From: Patellaria atrata CBS 101060
Lineage: Eukaryota
DNA: 64,000 nucleotides
Assembly (NCBI GenBank): GCA_010093705.1
Contig: MU006089.1
Span: 477,570 to 541,569, forward strand
Reading direction: 5' to 3'
A program made the translations under genes and the position numbers. This document shows, in pieces, positions 1 through 61,600 of this stretch (within the stretch, counting starts at the first letter, position 1; each line of letters opens with the position of its first letter). The notes under the pieces were generated by a model that was not told the DNA's origin, did no database searches, and saw only the letters and a program-made list of their open reading frames with translations.

Positions 1-2208
1 GAACCCGGACGGCGCATCCTTAGGATTAACCATATAATCGTCCTCATCCTCTGTGATATTTGTCGCCGGTTTCCTCGGCCCTCCCTTATGAACCTGGTAG
101 TTCTCCCTGTGATCCGGGTTCGCGCTGACGCCAGAGAAGAGCGTGTAGCGGGGGTCCCAATTGGAGGGGAAGTTTGTGCCTTCCGTGTATGTCAGGTTCC
201 CCGTGAGTATGTACTGCGACTCGCCGGAGTTCTGGTATGTGCCGATTGCGTCGCGCTTCTTGCGGTCCGTCGTCTGCGCGTTCAGGTACATCGTGTCGAC
301 GGAGCCCATGACGTCGAAGCCGTGGCCGTGGTCTGCGGTCACGAGAATAAGGGTGTCGTTGAAGGCGCCGTTAGCCTTGAGGTGCGCGATCGAGGCTTTA
401 ATCGTGTCGTCGAGTTCGAGTAGCTCGCCGAGGGCCCGGTCGTAGTCGAGCACGTGCATCATTTTGTCGATGGACGCGGCTTCAGACATGATGAACCATC
501 CCCCATCGCCGCTGCGCTCCTCGAGGATGTCAATGGCTTTCAAGGTCATCTCTTTGAGGCCGGGTTGGTTGGTAGCGTCATTACCGGAACCATCGGGGCT
601 GTTTTCTTGCCCTTCGAGGTTGTCGGTGTAGACGTTTCGGTCAAGCCATTTGGCCATGTTTGAAACGGAGAAGATTCCAAGAGTTTTGGAGTCGTTAGAC
701 GCGGCAGCAAGTTCGGTGGCATCTTGGACTACCTGGTAGCCCTTGTTGGCGAATTCGGCGTAGTAGTCCTTGTCCATGTATGTTTCTCCGCCGAGGGAAG
801 AATTGAAGATGTTCTCCGCACCTCCGCCAAACAAAACATCTGGTCCGTTCCATTCCGTCCATGAGTAATTAGTTATTCCATTAAGGAATGAGTCAATGAC
901 AGCGCCATATTCACTACGGGCTCGAGTATGCTACTGAAGTTAGGACTGATAATCGTGAATCCCAAGATATTACATACGGCGGTCAAAGCGGCTGGCGTTG
1001 CGTCTGCGATAAACGCAGTGCTTACGATACCAACGTGGCCGCCACAAATTCGGTGAAAGATTTCCGCAATGGTTTCAATCTTAGGATCATCGAACGGATC
1101 TGCACTGCTGTCACCGTAGACGCCGAGTGCGTTAACGACTGATTTGTGCCCAGTATACAATGCAGTCGCCGAGTTTGCGGAGTCAGTAATAAAAGTATCG
1201 AGGGAATGCGTCATTTGATGTCCTAATAAACAATTAGCTCTGTTTATACTCGAATATCAGAGGATATGTACCAAGGACTGGGAATTGATCCATCGCCTGT
1301 TTAGTTGTTAGGTGAATTCACTATATTATCAGATTGAGTAATCTCACCATCCTCGTCTGATATTTTCCATTCTTTTGCTTGTGGGCGATCAAGCGTGCGG
1401 CCTATCAAGCGTTAGATCTATCCCATACTCGGTCGTGCTATTAGGGGATAAGGGGAGCTATTGCTCTGCCACGCCTATGCAAAACTTACAGTGATCATGT
1501 TGGTTGTCATTCCGTCGCCGATGAAGAGAATGACATTCTTAGCCTTGCGGACCTCCTGAATATCCCTCACTAGCCAAGTCGCCTCGGAAGTCGTACCGTT
1601 GTTGTAAGTCAGGATGGCAGTGTATTCTCCAGGCTCATACAAGGCAACCTTTCGGTAGATCTTAGAAGCGACATTGACAATGGACTTGTTCTTAGCATCA
1701 CGAGCGAATAGATCTATTATTTTGTATGAGCAAGCGTTAAAATAGCCAGCTGTGCAAAGAGATTACCCACCCTCGTACCACCCAAACGACCAGCTCTCGA
1801 GCTCTGGCTCTTCAAGACCGAAATACGCGGCAGCAGTCTGCGCCTCGGTATCAGAATCCGCTTTCGCGATGGTGAATATAAAGTTCTCATCTGGTTCTAA
1901 ACCATTGGCTTCTGAACCATTGACTGGCGCGTGAACTTCCAAGCGGATGTCGAAGTACTGTCCAGCTAGGAAGTCGGCTCTACATTAGATCAGCATTGCT
2001 CCCTGAGTACAGGAGGACCTAACATACTGATCGGGAGGGAAGATGCAACCTGAGAGAGAGTCAATTATCAGCTCGGCCTCCCCACTTCTCGATCAATTGA
2101 CTTACCAAGTTCAGGGCAGGCTCCAAGTCTCTGAAAGGTCTGAGCATAGCCTTTTGCGACAAAGGAAGCAGCTAGCACCGCAAGTAATGAGCTCTTAGAA
2201 GCAACCAT
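1..2208 (-). CDS. Secreted alkaline phosphatase (multi-intron, 3' end outside window)
   Basis: ATG at 2208 gives the signal peptide MVASKSSLLAVLAASFVAKGYA. Spliced exons encode NVILFIGDGM, the catalytic-Ser motif ITDSANSATA, ADATPA and MSEAASIDKMMH. Confidence 0.92.
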
Positions 2209-6594: not shown

Positions 6595-6953
6595 GTGATG
6601 CTGCTGACTAATAATTACCTTTTACGTCAACTATGATAACCTTAAGGTATTAATAGCCAAGTGATAACCAAACCGAAAAGAACATATCTGAGTCCCTAAT
6701 GATGAAAGGTAAGTAAAGCTGTTATATAGTAAGGTACAGTGAGTACAGTTAAGTAGGCTGGTCCTGATTCTCGAGGTTATTAGTCATCTTGTACTGTAGC
6801 ATTTAAGGTAAGCCTTCCATCCGCTCATACAGTCAGGTAATTGTGCAATTGCTCTACCTATAAAGGGTTTTCATCCATTGATATTTTCTGCTATACTTCT
6901 ATAGACGCTTCCAAGATAATTCTATTGCGTACTGTCCAGCTTTGTCGCACAAA

Positions 6954-7708
6954 ATGTCCACCGTCCTAATTACCGGTTCCGCCTCAGGCTTGGGCCATGA
7001 ATTTATACGCCAGTATCAAGTCGACAGTTCAGTCAAGCAGCTTATAGGTTTAGACAAAAACTCCACAGACTCCAACTTGGACGTATCGAATGAACGTCCC
7101 GTCGGCCCAAAATCCGTACACTACCCGCGCGGGGATCTCACCTCCAAAGAGGACTTAGATGCACACATGGACTTTCTGCACGATGCCCCGGTTCACACTG
7201 TTATACACTCCGCTGGAATTCGTGGCCTAGTCCCTTCAGCCGTGGAACCCAATCCCAACGACGTCGCCACTGCTGAAACTTTGAAGACATGGATACTGAG
7301 ACCATGACGCGCACGTATGCGATAAACACGGTAGCGACCTTCGAGTTTATACGACGTTTAGTATCAAATCTCCGTCGTGCAGCGACGAGCGGTGTGGTTT
7401 CCAAGGTCCTGGTGATGTCGTCGCGGATGGGTTCAATCTCGAACGATCCGATCGGAGGGGGATACGCATATCGAGCGTCGAAGGCTGCGTTGAATGCAAT
7501 CCTCAAGACCTTCAGCGTTGATGTACCGGAAGTGGTTTTCGTTGCAATGCATCCTGGTTGCGGGGAGACCGGGTTGGTGAAATATAAGGAGAAGGGTGCT
7601 ATAAGCGCGAACGAGAGTGTTACGGATATGCGGGATACGATCGAAAAACTTGATATTGGAGACAGCGGTACTTGCGTAGATAGGTGGGTGGAAAAGATTG
7701 AATGGTAG
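6954..7708 (+). pseudogene. Short-chain dehydrogenase/reductase (CsgA-like) with a 1-nt frameshift
   Basis: Frame 1 carries TGSASGLG (Rossmann motif) and HSAG. Frame 2 carries SSRMGS, YRASK and MHPG. The junction TTG AAG AC ATG (7281-7291) lacks one base and shows no intron signals. Confidence 0.78.
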
Positions 7709-7877: not shown

Positions 7878-8699
7878 TCACCTATATGCATCAGCGTCTA
7901 CTTCTCCACCGGTAACTTCCCCCAAAACCTCCATCCCTTTGCTGAATTTCATGACAATGTCACTCAATCCCGCAATCATATCACCTCCATTATTTTCTCG
8001 AGCATCTTGAAGTAATTCCCGCCCACTGTTGTACGTAGATTGAAGTTCCGTGCCTTGTATGCGCAACATAAGGCCCGCTTCTCCCGCCTGCCCCTCGCTT
8101 TCGTCCCACGTCGGTGCGATGTCGATTCCAGCTTGGATAATCTGCCACTCCTTATCCAAGCTTTGAGTTTGTATGACGGTATGTCCGTCAGCGGCTACAT
8201 CAACAACGAGGTATCGCTCCTTGCTGCCTGCTGGTGGTTGTCTTGCTGAGGTAGAGTCTCGATCGTTTGTGCTAGGATGATCTGTTGCGCTATCTTCTAC
8301 AGGATCATACCCAGTCAGAGCATTGATGGATATGGCTGTCTGTACTTCAGGATCATCATCGGCAAAGACATAATGAACTGAAGGATGATAGTGTTCACCG
8401 TTAACGGCGTCTTCGATGAGAGTGAAGAAAGGGTTGAAGTTAGCTGGAGGAAGTAGGTGCTCATCCACCGTCTCTATATAGTCAGCGGTAGTATCTTCCT
8501 CAGTCAAGTCTTCTCCTTGGTGGTCTCTAGCAAAATCAAGATTGGACGTATCGTCTCCGGACACGTGACGCTCGGGGTAGGGAAATAATCCTTCTTCAGG
8601 GCTAAGGGGTTGATGTTCATCGCGTATGTTATCCTTCCCCTTTGGAAATACGGAAGGCAGGAGCTCTTGTGGAGTTGCTTTGTCTCGATCCACGGACAT
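7878..8699 (-). CDS. Conserved-looking acidic hypothetical protein (possible remote Atg31 homologue)
   Basis: Intronless 273 aa ATG-started ORF with ordered blocks FFTLIED, HPSVHYVFADDD, ERYLVVDV, LMLRIQG and a C-terminal amphipathic helix. Confidence 0.75.
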   Translation of the reverse strand: MSVDRDKATPQELLPSVFPKGKDNIRDEHQPLSPEEGLFPYPERHVSGDDTSNLDFARDHQGEDLTEEDTTADYIETVDEHLLPPANFNPFFTLIEDAVNGEHYHPSVHYVFADDDPEVQTAISINALTGYDPVEDSATDHPSTNDRDSTSARQPPAGSKERYLVVDVAADGHTVIQTQSLDKEWQIIQAGIDIAPTWDESEGQAGEAGLMLRIQGTELQSTYNSGRELLQDARENNGGDMIAGLSDIVMKFSKGMEVLGEVTGGEVDADAYR

Positions 8700-9200: not shown

Positions 9201-10604
9201 CTACTCCGTGAATGTAGAGCCAATAGGGCCAAACTTGATGTTAGAATAGGTGACAGATGCGCTAGCGCTCTGTGACTCCACATCAGCTGGGACCCCGGAA
9301 CTAGTTGCACACTCGCCACGCTCGAAACCTGGACCAGAACCATCCGTTGGGTAAGTGCTATCAAGCCAGAGCATATTGGCGTAGTGATCATCCCACAAGC
9401 TCATTACCAGCACCATTCCCTTGGACATCGCTGTGCTCATAGATTGGAAACCTCCTTTCTCCTTATAGCCGTAGTTATCTTTGAACACTGCCTTTTGAGC
9501 ATCGCAGAATTCATTAGTGATAGAGTTGAAACCCTCAACACCCTCGATGGTTGACATGGAGTTGGGGATAGTTTTGCCGTTTTGGACGTAGAAGCGTTTG
9601 ATTTCCGTGAGCGGATTACCAATGAACTGAGTGACAACAGTAAACTTCTTGCTGGTATCCACTGTCTTGCCCTTGCCGTAGAAGGTCTTGTCGCCCATGC
9701 GATAGGAATTGAAATCGCATCCATCTGGATCACAATCACCGCCGTATCGATCTGCAGAGTATGTTCCGCCGCAGCTATCCCCACTGCACATATGTTGTGC
9801 GGTATCCCTGCAGGAATGTGGTGTCACAGCAGTTGACACGGAGTTCGCCTCCCAAATGTCCATTTCGGCGCAGCAAGAGCCATGCTCACCTACACCAGCG
9901 TTCTGGTCATTCGTCGAAGGTGTCCAGCCTTCAACATTAGCCTACAGATGCATGTTAGTCTAAGAGCACTACTGCATCAGTGGAAGGCTTACTTGGCCAT
10001 TGATAAACTTCAAATCTCGAGGGCACTGAGCATCACAGTATCCCGTGCCGTATTTAGCTCCAGCTTTATTGGTAGAGTACTTAGCCATACCGCCATCTGC
10101 GTCCATGGAAACGAAGTACAGAGCTCCATTTAAGCCGCATGGAAGGTTCGAAACGTCCACATCGAATGTAAATTCATTGTTCAGCAGATTGAACATTTGA
10201 TATTTGGTGTCGCTCTCCATCAAATATGTCCGGGATCCAATATTGGTTGAGTATTGACCCTCAGTAACAAATGTGAGCTTTAAGGAGTTTGATCCGGCGT
10301 TGATACCATAGGTACCAGTATAATCGGCACCATCAAGAGCACAACTTGTAGCACATGCTGCATTGTCACTGCAAATTGTGCTATTCCACTCGTTGTCAGT
10401 ATAACAGTTGGTATACCCTTCTTTGGTGTGGAGCCATCTCCAGTTTGCGTCAAGAACGATTTTGCCTTGCTTGGATGAACAACTTCCGCCACTAGAGCAT
10501 TGTTGCCATGTCATGCCGGGGTGCGTTTCAGTCTGCTGCGTGCCAACAAGTTGGCCGCGAGCAAGAGCTGCAAGAGAAGTAGCGAGAAATAGACTGCGAT
10601 ACAT
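9201..10604 (-). CDS. cbh1: GH7 cellobiohydrolase I, catalytic domain only (no linker/CBM1)
   Basis: Signal peptide, [16 protein letters not shown], catalytic [20 protein letters not shown]. One intron 9942-9992 (GTAAGC..CTAAC..TAG) joins FINGQ to ANVEGW. The protein ends GPIGSTFTE. Confidence 0.96.
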
Positions 10605-12878
10605 GATGGTCCGCTGAAGATGGTTTGAAAATCTAGCAACAATAATTATGTGCGAGGTACGGCTCTTATATACATGTCAACAGAGTAAAAAAAAAAGGTG
10701 CTGAAACTAGAAGATGACAAGAATTTAGATTTCTATACTAGATGTGGACATAGTAATTAAGGGGGAAGTAGCAAAAACTTCGAATAAAGAAATGCCGGAT
10801 CGACGGGAATATCTCCTTAGATTATAGACAAAGTACTGTTCCGGCCAGGCGATGGAGTTCACGAGACTCCGAGGAAAGTTGATTTGACATGAATAAGGTC
10901 ATGGCAATCTATGAGACTGAATTTGACGTGTATCGGGGATAGATCTAAATGTCCCGATATTGATACCCGGTTAGGCAGGTCTGTGAGAGGTCTAATGAGG
11001 CTCTATCGATGCTTCTCGAGCAAATCATGCTCATCTGTTCAATAAGTAGATCCTGTCTCGAATAAAGGAAGCATCTTACAGCAAGAGTATGAAGGGAACC
11101 ACAGGGATTGGAGATGGAAGAGAGAGTTCTATGATTGTTAGTTGGAACAATCAACTCTAGGGCGAACTCACTGGGGCGACTGATGATGAATGGAACGGGG
11201 CGACTTTCATGATAGGCTTAGAAGCACAAACCATGACCTTGAGCATATCACAAAGCAAGGAATGCCTATTACGAACCCTGGGGCATGAGCTTCCCCGCAG
11301 AATCGTGATACGCGCCACGAAGAACATGCAAGGTTAGTAAGAGTTCCGTTTGCAAGTCTAACCATCAGAGAATGCTAGTCCGTAACTAGGTTTTTATTAT
11401 CCATCTTATATGAGTAACATCTAGCTTCCGAGTACACTCGGTGCGCCGAACTCTGCGCTTAAGCATCGCTGCTAAATCTTGCGGTTAAGAGCAGGATAGA
11501 CTCCGTCACTTAGGTTCCTTCATGAGAACGTAACATCGCCCCTCCCTAAGGGTTCCGTACGAGACGAGGTGAAGCTGGGCTGATAAGAGTAATTATGCTC
11601 CGTACTGACCTAGAGAGGAATACAAAAGAAGTTAGACGTCAGTCCGGACAGGGTGTTGAAATGATTCGTATGCGTGTCAGACGAGAAGGATGCTAGTGGT
11701 TCGATGGCTGATGGTTTCTTTACTGCATATTATCGGGACATGGGGTTGGTCAAGAAAATGGTCGTCCCACCTTGCATGTGAAGCATCACAATGGTGAGGG
11801 GATGCAAATGGGGCCGAGATATTAATCTAGGAGGGCTGCGACTGAGCTAGGAATTGGAGCATCAGCGTTATAATGTAGGTATTCGGGTTTCCCGCCTGGT
11901 GTGGTATTACCCCACAACCTCAATAAGCATTCCCCATACTTGGCGCCGAACCCCTGCCAGCGAACTCGCGGAGTAAACGTAAAAAGAGTACCTTCGCGTT
12001 TGACAGTATTCTTATCAATCCATGCTCAGAGACGAGCTGAGAATGCCCTCGTTGTCTGTATAGGACTTAAAGCGATGGTAACGCGATACACGATTGAGGT
12101 TTGCTACCCTGATGGAAGTCTGATAGTATGGATTGGTGTGAACGTCGAGGTAAGCAATCGCCTCCGTACTTGGCATGACTTAGTAGTTACCAAGCATTGC
12201 AAGAACGTGCTCAAGGACTCGATTGTGGGAACTTGTGGATACTTTCACGTACAATGCACAGGGCACAGTACGGTGTGGTGCGCTTTAACCAGGCGACGCG
12301 ATATTGCTGTAATATAGGAACTCCGGTTTGGGCCGTCGGGTGCGTTGGCCCCGCTTGGGATACGTAGACCGTACAGATCCTAGACAGGCACACGAGGACT
12401 GACGCTTCCTCGTGCCGACAAAGAGACGACAAAGGGGCGCAAGAAAGCATCGGAACGTGCATCAGGCTCATCTATAAGTCTTGGAGCCATTCAAAGCTTT
12501 CTTCTACGGCCTTGGTAGAAACCTTCTGATAATACAGCAATGAGATAATGTTCTCATTCATCGTGTGTACTTCACATTTTCAGGGGAAGTGGTTTGCATT
12601 CACAATAATGTAGTGTCTCGTGAACAATGTCTACTAATGTTTAGCAACTTCGAATAAATGAAGCCTCTAGGCGGTGGATCTTGTCTTCTCTGGGTAAGCT
12701 CGTGAATGCAATGAGTATCCTATGTGAATGGTTGCCGAAGTAGCCATGTAGTGACATTCCTCCTTTTGAAGCCCGATTGCATCGCCTGTGCTGATCGAAA
12801 AGGTATAAACAGTGAAGGGCTTGTATATTCTCCAGATGCGTTCAATATGTCAAATTGCTATAGTTAGGACGATAAGCA

Positions 12879-56249: not shown

Positions 56250-59015
56250 TTACATGACCATGTTGTGGTCACGGCTGGCGCAGTATTCCACGATAAGACG
56301 TTCAAGATCAAGTAGAGTATGCGGTTTGGTCAAGAAACCCTTCATGCCAACGTTCGCGGCTCGTTCGAGAGCTCCGTCCGTGACATCTGCAGTAATGGCG
56401 AGTATCGTTGGTTCAATCCGCCGTCTGAGGCCCGGGGAGTCGTCCGCATGCATCCCAAGAATGCGTTCTGTGGCCTCATAACCGTCCATGAACGGCATCC
56501 ATAGATCCATCAGGATGACTTCGATATCTTGGCCTTCACCTCGGTCGACAGACATCTGTCGGACTGCTTCAGCACCGTCGTATGCTTCATATATCGTTGT
56601 ATAGCCAAGTTTTCTTAGCATGTTGACGAGTAGAGAGCGATTGATCTTGTTGTCTTCCGCGACCAGAAACCGTATAGGATGCTTCTTAGCCAAATTGCGA
56701 TCGAATGTGACCTTTTTCGAAGACATACGACGATTCATAGGTCTACTGTTTCGTCTACCGGGAGTAGTTGATTGAGGAGGAGAGGGAATGCTTAGTCGTT
56801 GTGGTGTAGGGTTCGATGTTTGTGACTGTGCGTTAATAGCTTCGCGCTGCAATGATGAGGGAGGAAGAGGAGACGCATGACGGGCTGGGGATACGATGCC
56901 CTTGGCATCTGGTACGTCCAAGTCTGCAGACTGCCTTGACCTTGTAGATGGCGTAGGAGAACTAAAGGGTGAGCCTGCTCTGCTGCACACATCCCCTGGG
57001 GTCAAGGGAACTCGTATCTCGAATTCTGTACCCCTATTTTGACCTGATGTCTCTGATCTTGTGCAGTGTAGGTCACCTCCAAGCTTACGAGCAAGTCCTT
57101 TTGCTACAAGTAAGCCAAGTCCTAAGCCTTCACTCTGACGAGTTAAGGAGACATCTTCACGGGCGAAAGGCTTGAACAGGTTCGGGAGGAACGCTTTTGG
57201 AATGCCAGGCCCGGTATCTTTCACGTTGATCACCACATATCGTGACTTTGGGCTGAGCCTAGCGGCTACGTTGATAGTACCTCGATGTGTAAATTTTATT
57301 GCGTTATGCACTACGCAGGAAATGACTTTAGAGAGGTCCTTCTCGTCAACTATTCAATAATTAGTGAAAATAGTATTAAATGTTGACAAGTTTAACCTAC
57401 TCAACAGGGTCTCCGGAACCCCCGGAACGACAGACCACTCGATTGTCTTAGTACTCTCATTTCCGCTAGAGCTCCTTGTCCGGACTTCAATTATCTCACC
57501 GTTATCCGTTTCATGGGCGATCGCTGACTCTGGGCGTCCTCCAACCTTCAGTGAGTCGTTCACAACATACTGTAGGACATCCCGAACGTGTGTGTAACGT
57601 AAGCCTGGGGCAACAGTCCGTTCAAGAGGAAAGTCCATGGATCGAGGAGAATTCTCTCGCGCCAGTTGTTCGCTAACCAATGCAGATTGAGTCACCGCGA
57701 AAGATTCAAATGCCGCATAACTGGGTAGTGGGCTGGGCTGTGATCTTGAAGCGACGCTTGATTTCGTAGCTTGAATTTTGGCAGCATTACCTGACTCCCA
57801 GGCCACGCTCTTTCTACGTCGCTTGTTGTGTCCAAAATTGATTGGCATATTGTTTCCAGTAACGACGATATCAGGCCTTCGTTCCTTTTCACATGGAACT
57901 TTATCCTCATAATCAGCATCAAATGGAGTATGCGGAGTGTCCGGAAATCCCATATTCATGTCATAAGCATGCACAACATTGTCCGCAGCTTCGACAGCTC
58001 TTCTAGAGCTGTCTGGTATATTGTTTAGCCGAGGGAGACACGGGGAGATTACAGTTGACTTACCCTGAACGATTTCGATATTCTCTTTTAGCGTTTCGAA
58101 CACTTTCCTAAGGCGGGCGTCTTTTAGACCTTCTGCTGCCTCCTGAACAGTGCCATGCATTACATCTAGCATTCCCACTATACCCTGCATAGGGGTTCTG
58201 AGCTCATGGGAAAGACTCCGTGCATACGGTTTGAGAGACTGAGCTGCAGAAATAGCCTCGTGAGGTATCACCCGGCTTGGATCCTTTGATAGGGCATCTG
58301 GTCTTGGGAAAACATCACCAGAGAGTAGACGTTCGAGGATCACATCTTCAAGTGCGTGAAACATCATTTCGATATAACCCCAGCCTAGAGTTCGCTTCCT
58401 AGCTCCTTCTACCGACCACATCACACCGAAGTGGGCAAAACATTTTCCATCGGCGAAAAGTGGAATTCCGATATAACTTTCTCCTTTGAATGGCAGTACA
58501 TTTGGGTTTTCTGTGACAAATTGGTCGAGCATTTCCGGAATGATGAAAACTTTGTCGTGCTTCATATACGCACATGGACAGCTATATGCGTGATATTTGA
58601 TGTTTTTCATCGTTTTCTTGACCCCTCCGGTGGTACCATCGTTGGCATACATCGCAACGCCCAACAGACAGGATCCGGGATGTCCGATAGGGGGCATCTC
58701 AACGGCGGAATCTTCATCGTCGGCCAGAATTCTTTTGGAAACAAATGCAAGCTGCGCACCCGCAAGGTCGGTGAGTCCCTCCACAACCACTTCCCAAAAG
58801 TCCTCAGTGGTAGTTGTCCGTAACCGCTGCTTCAACTCAATCAACTTCTCCGCCGCGTTATTTTCAGCCACAACAAAATGCTTCCTGACCTCTTCTCGAA
58901 ACCCGGCATCATGCTCATGAACAACAACTCCAGGAACTGGTCGCGATAAACAAAGTGTCTTTCTTGGTAGTATGTCCGGCGGTTCGTCCCGCGAGCTCTG
59001 CTCGCCACCACCCAT
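56250..59015 (-). CDS. Hybrid sensor histidine kinase (GAF-like sensor, HisKA, HATPase_c, receiver)
   Basis: H-box LSHELRTPMQG, N-box HNAIKFT, G1 DTGPGI, G2 GLGLGL, receiver AEDNKIN...LMDLWMP...KP. Introns at 58013-58063 and 57350-57400. Confidence 0.93.
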
Positions 59016-61600
59016 TTTTCGGCAATTTCTCCAGTTTCCAAATGTTACTTTTCAAATGCTCGTTTTGTTGCACCAGAGCCTTTAGGGGTTAATGACGGTC
59101 TAGTGGTGAGTAAACTTCTTTACCAAATTTCTAAAGAAAACAGATGTTTGAAACAAGAGGTGGAGGAAGATCTGCTTCTGGTGATCTTGGAAAAGGTGGG
59201 AAAAACGAGGGTCAAAGTTCTGGAGTGGAAATGATCGACTCATCAGCCCGAACATTCAGCGGTCTGGAGAAGAACGATGTGCGAAGCTGGACCCAGGGCG
59301 TACCAAGGCTACCTTCTTGGTTCTAGGGCGAACCTGAGGCTGACTAAGGGTCGTATCTTGACCTGCAAGTACTTTCTTATTAGCTCCGTGTCGGTTTGGA
59401 TATTCGAGGTGGAGCTTCAGAAAGCTGGACCATATCTTCTCGTAAGGGTTGAAGGTAAGGTAGTTTTAAAGAAGAGCACGAGAAGAGACAAGATGGGAGC
59501 TACAAATCCACGAGTAACTGGTACAACTCCGTACGATAAGCTCACACATATGGTACAAGTACAAAATCTCACCATTGATTGTTATTAGGCGGGACTAGCA
59601 AAGACAGGGAAAAGGCGGAGGGAATAATCACAAAACCGCTTTCTCGAAAGGGCACTGTCTGGATAGTTTCTCACAATAATTGGATAGAGTAGTGAGGGGG
59701 CCCCCTTGGGGGTAAGTCAGGCCCTGAAGGGGGAGCGGGCACTGGCAGGCAAAGATGGGTTGTGTGTCGGCGGTGGTACTGTGTACTGTGGGTTCTGCGG
59801 AAAGTCTGGAAGGGGCTTAGTGGGTACTCAAGCACTTTTACTGTAGCACGGACAATTTGTTGGTGGTTTGTCTTTCGACCGTTCTAGACGCGTTTCAGGT
59901 TCCTCATCTTTGCTGTGCCAACCCACCTGCGCCCTCATGAACCAGTTCTTCGGTATCGTGGATTCGTGGAAATCATGCTTTTTCCATCTTATTCTTGACT
60001 CTCATATCATCAATATCCTCGATTGTAATCATCCAAATCATGTCGTGTGCTCTGTGTGCATTGCAATATCTCTGCAGAGGAAGCGAAAAAGGGGTCTGCT
60101 TCAGTCTTCAGATACAGTAACTGCACCCTGATGGATCATCGATGAGGTGATATAACATGTAGCTTGAAAAGATTACGTATGCTTGCGATCGGGGGATCAA
60201 CGGCGCGAGAACTCTAAAGAAGGATAAATGGCCGATCATGCCGATAAATCTGATGCTTGTCCAGCACTTTTCTGAGTGTTTACCGTGATTTCTGGCAGGG
60301 ACATACTTGTACTGTATGCAGTTGGAGTTCTAGAACGCACCTTCAAGCCGTTTACCCATAACAGCTTCCTGCGAGCCTTGGCTTTCGTCAGAGGCGTTTA
60401 TGCAAGGCTTGGTTCAATCTACTACTGCTGGCACGTCGTAGCACGACAAAAAGCAGTTCCAAAAGAGGACGACCAAGCCGAGAAGGCCATACTTACAAAA
60501 TCACAACAGAGTCAATCCTATTTACGTTGCAGCCGACAAAGCCGAAGCCTTCCATTTTTGCTCAAAAGCAGACGAGAAATAGATCACCAGGGATTGTAGA
60601 AAACTCACAGAGCACTGCGAAGTTGCTTCAGCGATATTCAAAATGGATCCACTAAATTTCAATATGAAGTAAAGTAAATGAAACTCTAAGAAACTCTTCT
60701 AGCTTTTATTTCTGATTATGTTGTGCGTTGTAAGAGTTCTGCACGCTCTGGTGGAGTTATCCCTCTTCCTTACTGCACAACAAGACTATAGTAGCTAGCT
60801 TATATACGCTAGTTCTATCTTTGTGCTGCGCTCACCAGACCTTCTTTTCTCATTATATCTGAGGATTCCATCACGCTCCGGTTATTCACGTGCCGTATGA
60901 CCGGCCTATCATACTTTTCTGAAAAGATCTACTTTCCGCCTAGCAATTCTCGATGCGTTTCCTAATAATCCCGTCTGACGATTGGTGCGTCTCTTAGCAC
61001 AAGATGTTAGGGTAATGTCTCAATAACGGGAATAAAACACATCGAGCCGTTCCAGTCGCTCCACTACTCGGCATACGGACCCTTTCCGATTGACTTAAGT
61101 TTATGTTCATGACAGATAATCAGATGTTTCCCTTACAGGTTCAGTAATTCCTAGATCAAGGAGCCTCCACGAACAAGTTGCTGTGCTACTTTGATGAGAG
61201 GTTTTCGGGAGACTTAGGTTAGAAGCTGATGTAACGATACGCAAAGGCATTTGAGTATCCTTTTTCTAGTCACCCCGATATTCTTCACTTTTGGTCTCTA
61301 TTCTCGTGGCTTTCAAGCACCATTCCCTTTACTCAGATATGAGGATAAAAGAAATTGTAGGAGATAGGAGATATGAATTTCTGTGTTACGAATCCTCCGG
61401 AACTCCTCAAAATCCTGTTCGGTGGTTCTTGTTCTCATGATGAAAGATGTCGACGTCACGTTTCGGTCTTCAACCCCGCCTCCGAGTAACAGCCCGAATG
61501 AATCCATCGGACGCGGATTAGAACGGTAAACAGCCACAATGATGTGATTAAGTACCGATTAGATCCTATCCTGATGCCCGTGTTCCCGTCCCTTAGCGCT

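Follow-up and report, generated by a model that had tools for sequence, protein, structure and literature searches.

A probable, strongly diverged Atg31 counterpart of filamentous ascomycetes encoded by Patellaria atrata CBS 101060

The autophagy protein Atg31, also designated Cis1, is described as a beta-sandwich of eight strands, one of them contributed by the N-terminus of Atg29, with a C-terminal helix that attaches to the concave face of Atg17, and as far as known Atg29 reaches Atg17 only via Atg31 (PMC4506457). According to PMC6550541 (2018), filamentous fungi have no Atg31 homologue, and Atg31 was reported as not found in Fusarium graminearum (PMC5594004, 2017) and in M. oryzae, where Atg101 was proposed as its replacement (PMC9643702, 2022). 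Atg101 serves the Atg1/ULK initiation complex as an accessory subunit and has been discussed as a functional alternative to the Atg29-Atg31 pair (PMC9643702, PMC4506457). Here, a gene is described from a 64,000-nucleotide stretch of contig MU006089.1 of Patellaria atrata CBS 101060, hereafter the window, that with good probability encodes the Atg31 of Pezizomycotina, which with Atg17 and Atg29 would form the scaffold of the Atg1 autophagy-initiation complex. Its product is regarded as a probable, though strongly diverged, orthologue of Atg31 in filamentous ascomycetes. A reading of the DNA made from the sequence only had proposed such a highly diverged Atg31, and this proposal is now supported by a profile link of the whole protein family to the Pfam ATG31 model and by the match of the predicted fold to solved Atg31. 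The premise of this sequence-only reading, namely that Atg17 and Atg29 are reported in filamentous ascomycetes with Atg31 reported missing, is indeed stated in PMC9643702 and PMC6550541, and the lack of Atg31 also in PMC5594004.

The Atg31-like coding sequence lies on the minus strand at positions 7878..8699 as a complete single exon. Its uninterrupted frame begins with an ATG (8697-8699), ends with the codon at 7881-7883 ahead of a TGA stop (7878-7880) and yields 273 residues. The protein matches the family profile with E=7.4e-77, and in an alignment of 36 sequences homologues can be aligned from the start methionine through the C-terminus. The start codon is supported because N-termini of homologues (MS...LLPSPFP) line up with this start methionine. 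All six sequence blocks named beforehand could be located in the protein in the stated order, comprising FTLIED (residues 92-97, window positions 8409-8426), HPSVHYVFADDD (residues 105-116, 8352-8387), ERYLVVDVAADG (residues 161-172, 8184-8219), VIQTQSLDKEWQII (residues 175-188, 8136-8177), LMLRIQG (residues 210-216, 8052-8072) and LSDIVMKFSKGMEVL (residues 245-259, 7923-7967). A linker between the second and the third block is present as well (residues 117-160), but it is rich in Ser, Pro, Thr, Ala and Asp and not purely acidic as had been described. Positions F88, P90, F91, F92, D97, H105, P106, Y110, F112, D114, D115, S180, W185, A195, P196, M211 and G216 are invariant in the 36-sequence alignment. 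The blocks do not represent a chance resemblance, as they coincide with those alignment columns that are best conserved across a large family.

The protein is a member of a widespread and so far unnamed family of filamentous ascomycetes. In a word-seeded search, its nearest relative exhibits just 48% identity, and 116 among 791 candidates match the family at E<=1e-3. A HMMER scan of 1.84 billion representatives with the 36-sequence profile matched 678 of them at E<=1e-3, of which 597 remain at E<=1e-10 and 320 at E<=1e-30, with the best 150 of the 678 covered individually. Named members belong to Dothideomycetes, Eurotiomycetes (including Aspergillus, Talaromyces, Penicillium, Exophiala and Capronia), Lecanoromycetes, Geoglossomycetes, Leotiomycetes and Sordariomycetes (including Gaeumannomyces). 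In ten clusters that were checked, the names given by the sources are 'hypothetical', 'uncharacterized' or 'Anaphase-promoting complex subunit 11' throughout. A group of about 25 shorter entries (P0405-P0429, 150-220 amino acids) was considered as a new lineage and rejected, as these entries correspond to the C-terminal halves of Leotiomycete members and are probably truncated gene calls on short contigs.

The sequence link to Atg31 runs through these relatives and their matches to the Pfam ATG31 family (PF09795). The strongest single case is the member P0327, which exceeds the curated PF09795 cut-off with 30.1 versus 25 bits (E=5.8e-7) and is related to the P. atrata protein with a BLASTP E=6e-20 and 31% identity over 213 residues. 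Sub-threshold PF09795 matches were observed for 8 of 140 listed representatives, 6 of 29 further members and 3 of 37 more; they map to the sandwich core, mostly to profile positions 25-106 of 156. Precomputed PF09795 matches are found on 11 of the 102 proteins retrieved by a third search, those with names nearby being Helotiales. When a set made non-redundant at 62% identity (A4, with 146 of 190 representatives used) was compared with 24,736 Pfam models, 45 families were seen, of which ATG31 was matched at E<=1 by 29 of the 146 members and every other family by two at most. The expectation that the Pfam ATG31 profile would recognize the protein thus holds for the family, via P0327 and the 29 members, but not for the P. 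atrata protein itself, which matched no Pfam family at E<=10 in full length and none at E<=1 with residues 84-273. Homology to Atg31 through intermediate sequences, that is by a transitive profile link, is well supported at the level of sequence profiles.

Certain results weigh against this assignment. The remaining 117 of the 146 non-redundant members show no ATG31 match, and no Atg31 chain was retrieved in five sequence searches of the PDB (phmmer/hmmsearch with P0001, A1, A2, A3 and P0327), whose best rows were unrelated helices or a MarR protein with E>=0.044. Similarly, profile searches with A2 and A3 at E<=10 did not reach budding-yeast Atg31 and returned only Pezizomycotina members and one row with E=2.8.

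Structural comparison places the protein with Atg31 by a different route. Two AlphaFold2 models were used, a full-length model built from 36 sequences with a mean predicted local distance difference test (pLDDT) of 65, and a core model of residues 84-273 built from 146 sequences with a mean pLDDT of 83.4 and a predicted template-modelling score (pTM) of 0.72. With both of them, the five top Foldseek matches among 350,542 PDB chains all come from the Atg17-Atg29-Atg31 complexes 4HPQ, 4P1W and 5JHF (chains B and E), so that the structural comparison suggested in the sequence-only reading points to Atg31. Chain B of 4HPQ is the Lachancea thermotolerans Atg31 (PMC4383750). E values to the Atg31 chains are 0.011-0.064 for the full-length model and 0.014-0.045 for the core model, the latter with a probability up to 0.98 and a template-modelling (TM) score by target up to 0.54, and by rank 6 the probability is down to 0.06-0.14. 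E<=0.001 was reached by no Foldseek match. Two independent aligners place the Atg31 chains alone at the top with 111-118 residues of 115-135 covered at a sequence identity of 11-14%, the next row lying 2.6-4 Z units lower. The core and the L. thermotolerans Atg31 sandwich align with each other (model range 4..183 versus chain 9..146, VIA), and the long helix at residues 241-262 aligns with the C-terminal helix of the Atg31 chains. As modelled, the protein is a beta-sandwich followed by a C-terminal alpha-helix as in Atg31, and this predicted fold is a match to solved Atg31 to which no other solved chain is comparable. A protein-language-model search returned a 'Cis1p' cluster, with PF09795 on 50% of its members, at rank 7 with a score of 0.87 for the full-length query and first among named clusters with the core query (0.89, 193/256 features), which is taken as a lead only.

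These data also bear on the alternative that the likeness reflects a common small beta-sandwich-plus-helix arrangement, with the Pfam matches being compositional noise due to acidic and Ser-rich sequence and the family unrelated to Atg31. Such an explanation appears quite improbable, as noise would have to single out ATG31 in 29 of 146 members when none of the other Pfam models is matched by more than two, and would have to lift P0327 over a curated cut-off. Furthermore, two independent aligners rank the Atg31 chains alone at the top with a clear gap in Z units, and the language-model search arrives independently at the Atg31 family.

The predicted protein is organized in four regions. The N-terminal region (residues 1-83, 8451..8699, minus strand) is predicted to be disordered, is rich in Asp, Glu, Leu and Pro and is poorly conserved, with pLDDT values of 41-54 for residues 1-80 in the full-length model. 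It carries an LLPSxFP-like motif, ELLPSVFP, at residues 12-19 (window positions 8643-8666, minus strand). This motif is common to some members (P0002, P0005, P0025, P0061, P0102, P0103) and absent from Pleosporales, and may be a short linear motif of the disordered N-terminus. The beta-sandwich core (residues 84-218, 8046..8450, minus strand) contains strands at residues 92-97, 164-168, 175-180, 185-194 and 210-218 and the invariant motifs FxPFFTLIED, HPxVHYxFxDDD, SLSxxWQ, AP and LMLxIxG. Within the sandwich lies a family-specific insertion (residues 117-160, 8220..8351, minus strand), which consists of a helix at about residues 117-128 and a Ser/Pro/Thr/Asp-rich loop; its pLDDT in the core model is 57-77, and the length of the loop varies strongly between members. 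The C-terminal helical region (residues 226-262, 7914..8024, minus strand) comprises a short helix (226-236) and the long amphipathic helix (241-262). Positions 245, 248, 249, 252, 256, 259, 262 and 263 of the latter are hydrophobic in 94-99% of 146 members, and its hydrophobic moment is 1.39 at 100 degrees versus 0.38 at 160 degrees. By analogy with yeast Atg31, this long helix is a candidate Atg17-binding helix. A conserved hydrophobic face with helical periodicity fits the packing of a helix on a helical bundle, from which a bridging of Atg29 and Atg17 would be expected. The disordered N-terminus and the insertion at residues 117-160 constitute lineage-specific additions, and it is a matter of speculation that they act as regulatory regions subject to phosphorylation.

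If the protein acts as yeast Atg31 does, the N-terminal strand of Atg29 would complete its incomplete sandwich, the conserved helix 241-262 would pack onto the Atg17 helical bundle, and the protein would thereby connect Atg29 with Atg17 at the phagophore assembly site in starvation-induced autophagy. Alternatively, a true Atg31 homologue may no longer serve as the Atg29-Atg17 bridge and may have acquired other partners or a place outside autophagy, with Atg101 in the accessory role. Such a loss of function is rather unlikely, although the proposed replacement of Atg31 by Atg101 in M. oryzae (PMC9643702), the extreme divergence at 11-14% identity to the Atg31 chains and the long additions absent from the solved yeast chains, namely the N-terminal ~83 residues and the insertion 117-160, all speak in its favour. 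However, conservation within the family is highest in the sandwich and the C-terminal amphipathic helix, the two elements by which yeast Atg31 makes its contacts. Both Atg17 and Atg29 are reported from filamentous fungi (PMC9643702, PMC6550541), in the solved complex Atg29 depends on Atg31 for its connection to Atg17 (PMC4506457), and yeasts annotated with both Atg101 and Atg29/Atg31 exist (PMC12482441). A bridging Atg31 hence remains the preferred interpretation.

A further alternative arises from database names, as some relatives are called 'Anaphase-promoting complex subunit 11' or 'ubiquitin-protein transferase', which would make the protein a subunit or partner of the anaphase-promoting complex. 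Merged gene models also indicate that in several Dothideomycetes and Eurotiomycetes APC11 is the gene immediately upstream. RING-H2 matches in relatives are located at residues 1-23 in P0034, 1-22 in P0091, 8-31 in P0163, 69-128 in P0167 and 21-49 in P0370, and in all cases examined they are confined to N-terminal extensions of merged or truncated models. Because the RING occurs only in merged N-terminal extensions, APC11 is a frequent upstream neighbour in several lineages and not part of the protein. The P. atrata protein itself has no RING (no zf-ANAPC11 match), and tblastn revealed no APC11-like sequence within the 64-kb window. A function in the anaphase-promoting complex is accordingly very improbable, and an identity as a component of this complex was rejected, given that the names stem from merged gene models and no RING-H2 domain (PF12861) is found in the protein.

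As to the relatives themselves, gene models have often fused the last exon of APC11 or its whole RING to the Atg31-like gene (P0034, P0091, P0108, P0163, P0167, P0370, P0458, P0478), and in several Dothideomycetes and Eurotiomycetes APC11 is the upstream gene in the same orientation. The APC11 name has spread to RING-less entries, such as P0382, and is also borne by P0459. RING-less bearers of this name without any Pfam family are P0382, P0305, P0311 and P0325.

The genes around the Atg31-like gene are ordinary fungal genes. A short-chain dehydrogenase gene (6882-7708, plus strand) converges on its 3' end; as the reading of this dehydrogenase gene is spread over two overlapping frames (6882-7307 and 7277-7708), it is likely to have an intron. 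The upstream neighbour is a glycoside hydrolase family 7 (GH7) cellulase gene (9201-10676, minus strand), split over the open frames 9201-9941 and 9969-10676 in a manner that fits one short intron. Farther genes in the window encode a Pex24p peroxin, KIN17, Utp13, a P-type ATPase and a hybrid histidine kinase. The last of these (56250-59051, minus strand) has HATPase_c and response-regulator receiver domains at 56250-57353 and continues into a 565-residue open frame without a Pfam match at E<=1e-5. Neither Atg29 nor Atg17 nor APC11 was seen within the 64-kb window. Among the sequencing runs listed as containing the stretch there is none of RNA; two runs contain it in long contigs (pieces of 17-57 kb), are probably DNA and may be the source of the window.

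With an Atg31 candidate in six Pezizomycotina classes, it can be tested directly which subunits make up the initiation complex in these fungi, and if the assignment is true, the origin of the Atg29-Atg31 module moves back in ascomycete evolution. It would also correct the 'APC11' mis-annotation that has been propagated over many database entries. Gaeumannomyces, the source of one named family member, belongs to Magnaporthales. A literature search found no publication linking Atg31 to Pezizomycotina, and among the titles listed for Atg31 homologues none is on filamentous fungi. Lai et al. 2025 may already describe the family. In that work (Autophagy, 2025; Mizushima group), the evolution of the initiation complex was reportedly reconstructed 'in fungi'. 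Atg29 is reported in filamentous fungi although its sole known route to Atg17 is Atg31 (PMC4506457). On balance, the view is slightly favoured that a complete Atg17-Atg31-Atg29 scaffold was kept alongside Atg101, that the module predates the split of Pezizomycotina and Saccharomycotina, that the supposed mutual exclusivity of Atg101 and Atg29/Atg31 is an artefact of the extreme divergence of Atg31, and that the N-terminus and the insertion provide new regulatory inputs to autophagy initiation.

Outside Ascomycota, a Basidiomycota 'hypothetical protein' cluster in the ESM Atlas (170 amino acids, 438 members) resembles the core with a feature score of 0.87, and a second such Basidiomycota cluster (121 amino acids, 162 members) matches query residues 85-221 with a TM score of 0.60 relative to its own length. 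Both clusters may represent Atg31-like proteins. These weak language-model and structure leads give a hint that the Atg29-Atg31 module may be older still.

Compared with the described systems, the likeness to APC11 (PF12861) is restricted to the database name on relatives and to gene adjacency in several lineages, whereas the P. atrata protein lacks a RING and APC11 is not adjacent here. Atg101 has a HORMA domain, binds Atg13 and is described as having no sequence or structural similarity to Atg29-Atg31 (PMC4506457), and no HORMA chain is among the structure matches listed for the P. atrata protein. A further point of comparison is Nadsonia fulvescens, an early-branching budding yeast with a long and highly diverged Atg31, in which the authors found no similarity to S. 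cerevisiae Atg31, and which also has Atg101 (PMC12482441). This source deals with budding and fission yeasts only, and filamentous fungi receive no mention in it. An AlphaFold3 model of the N. fulvescens protein shows the arrangement given above for Atg31, a sandwich with a strand from Atg29 and a C-terminal helix, with the helix at residues 239-260 (PMC12482441), as compared with 241-262 in P. atrata, a comparison made by description only in which the similar length may be a coincidence. The nearest known system is the Atg31 (Cis1) of budding yeasts (PF09795), solved from Lachancea thermotolerans (chains B and E of 4HPQ, 4P1W and 5JHF). From budding-yeast Atg31 the P. atrata protein is set apart by an identity of 11-14% without a direct PF09795 match, and by the addition of a disordered N-terminal extension of ~83 residues and an insertion of ~44 residues in the sandwich.
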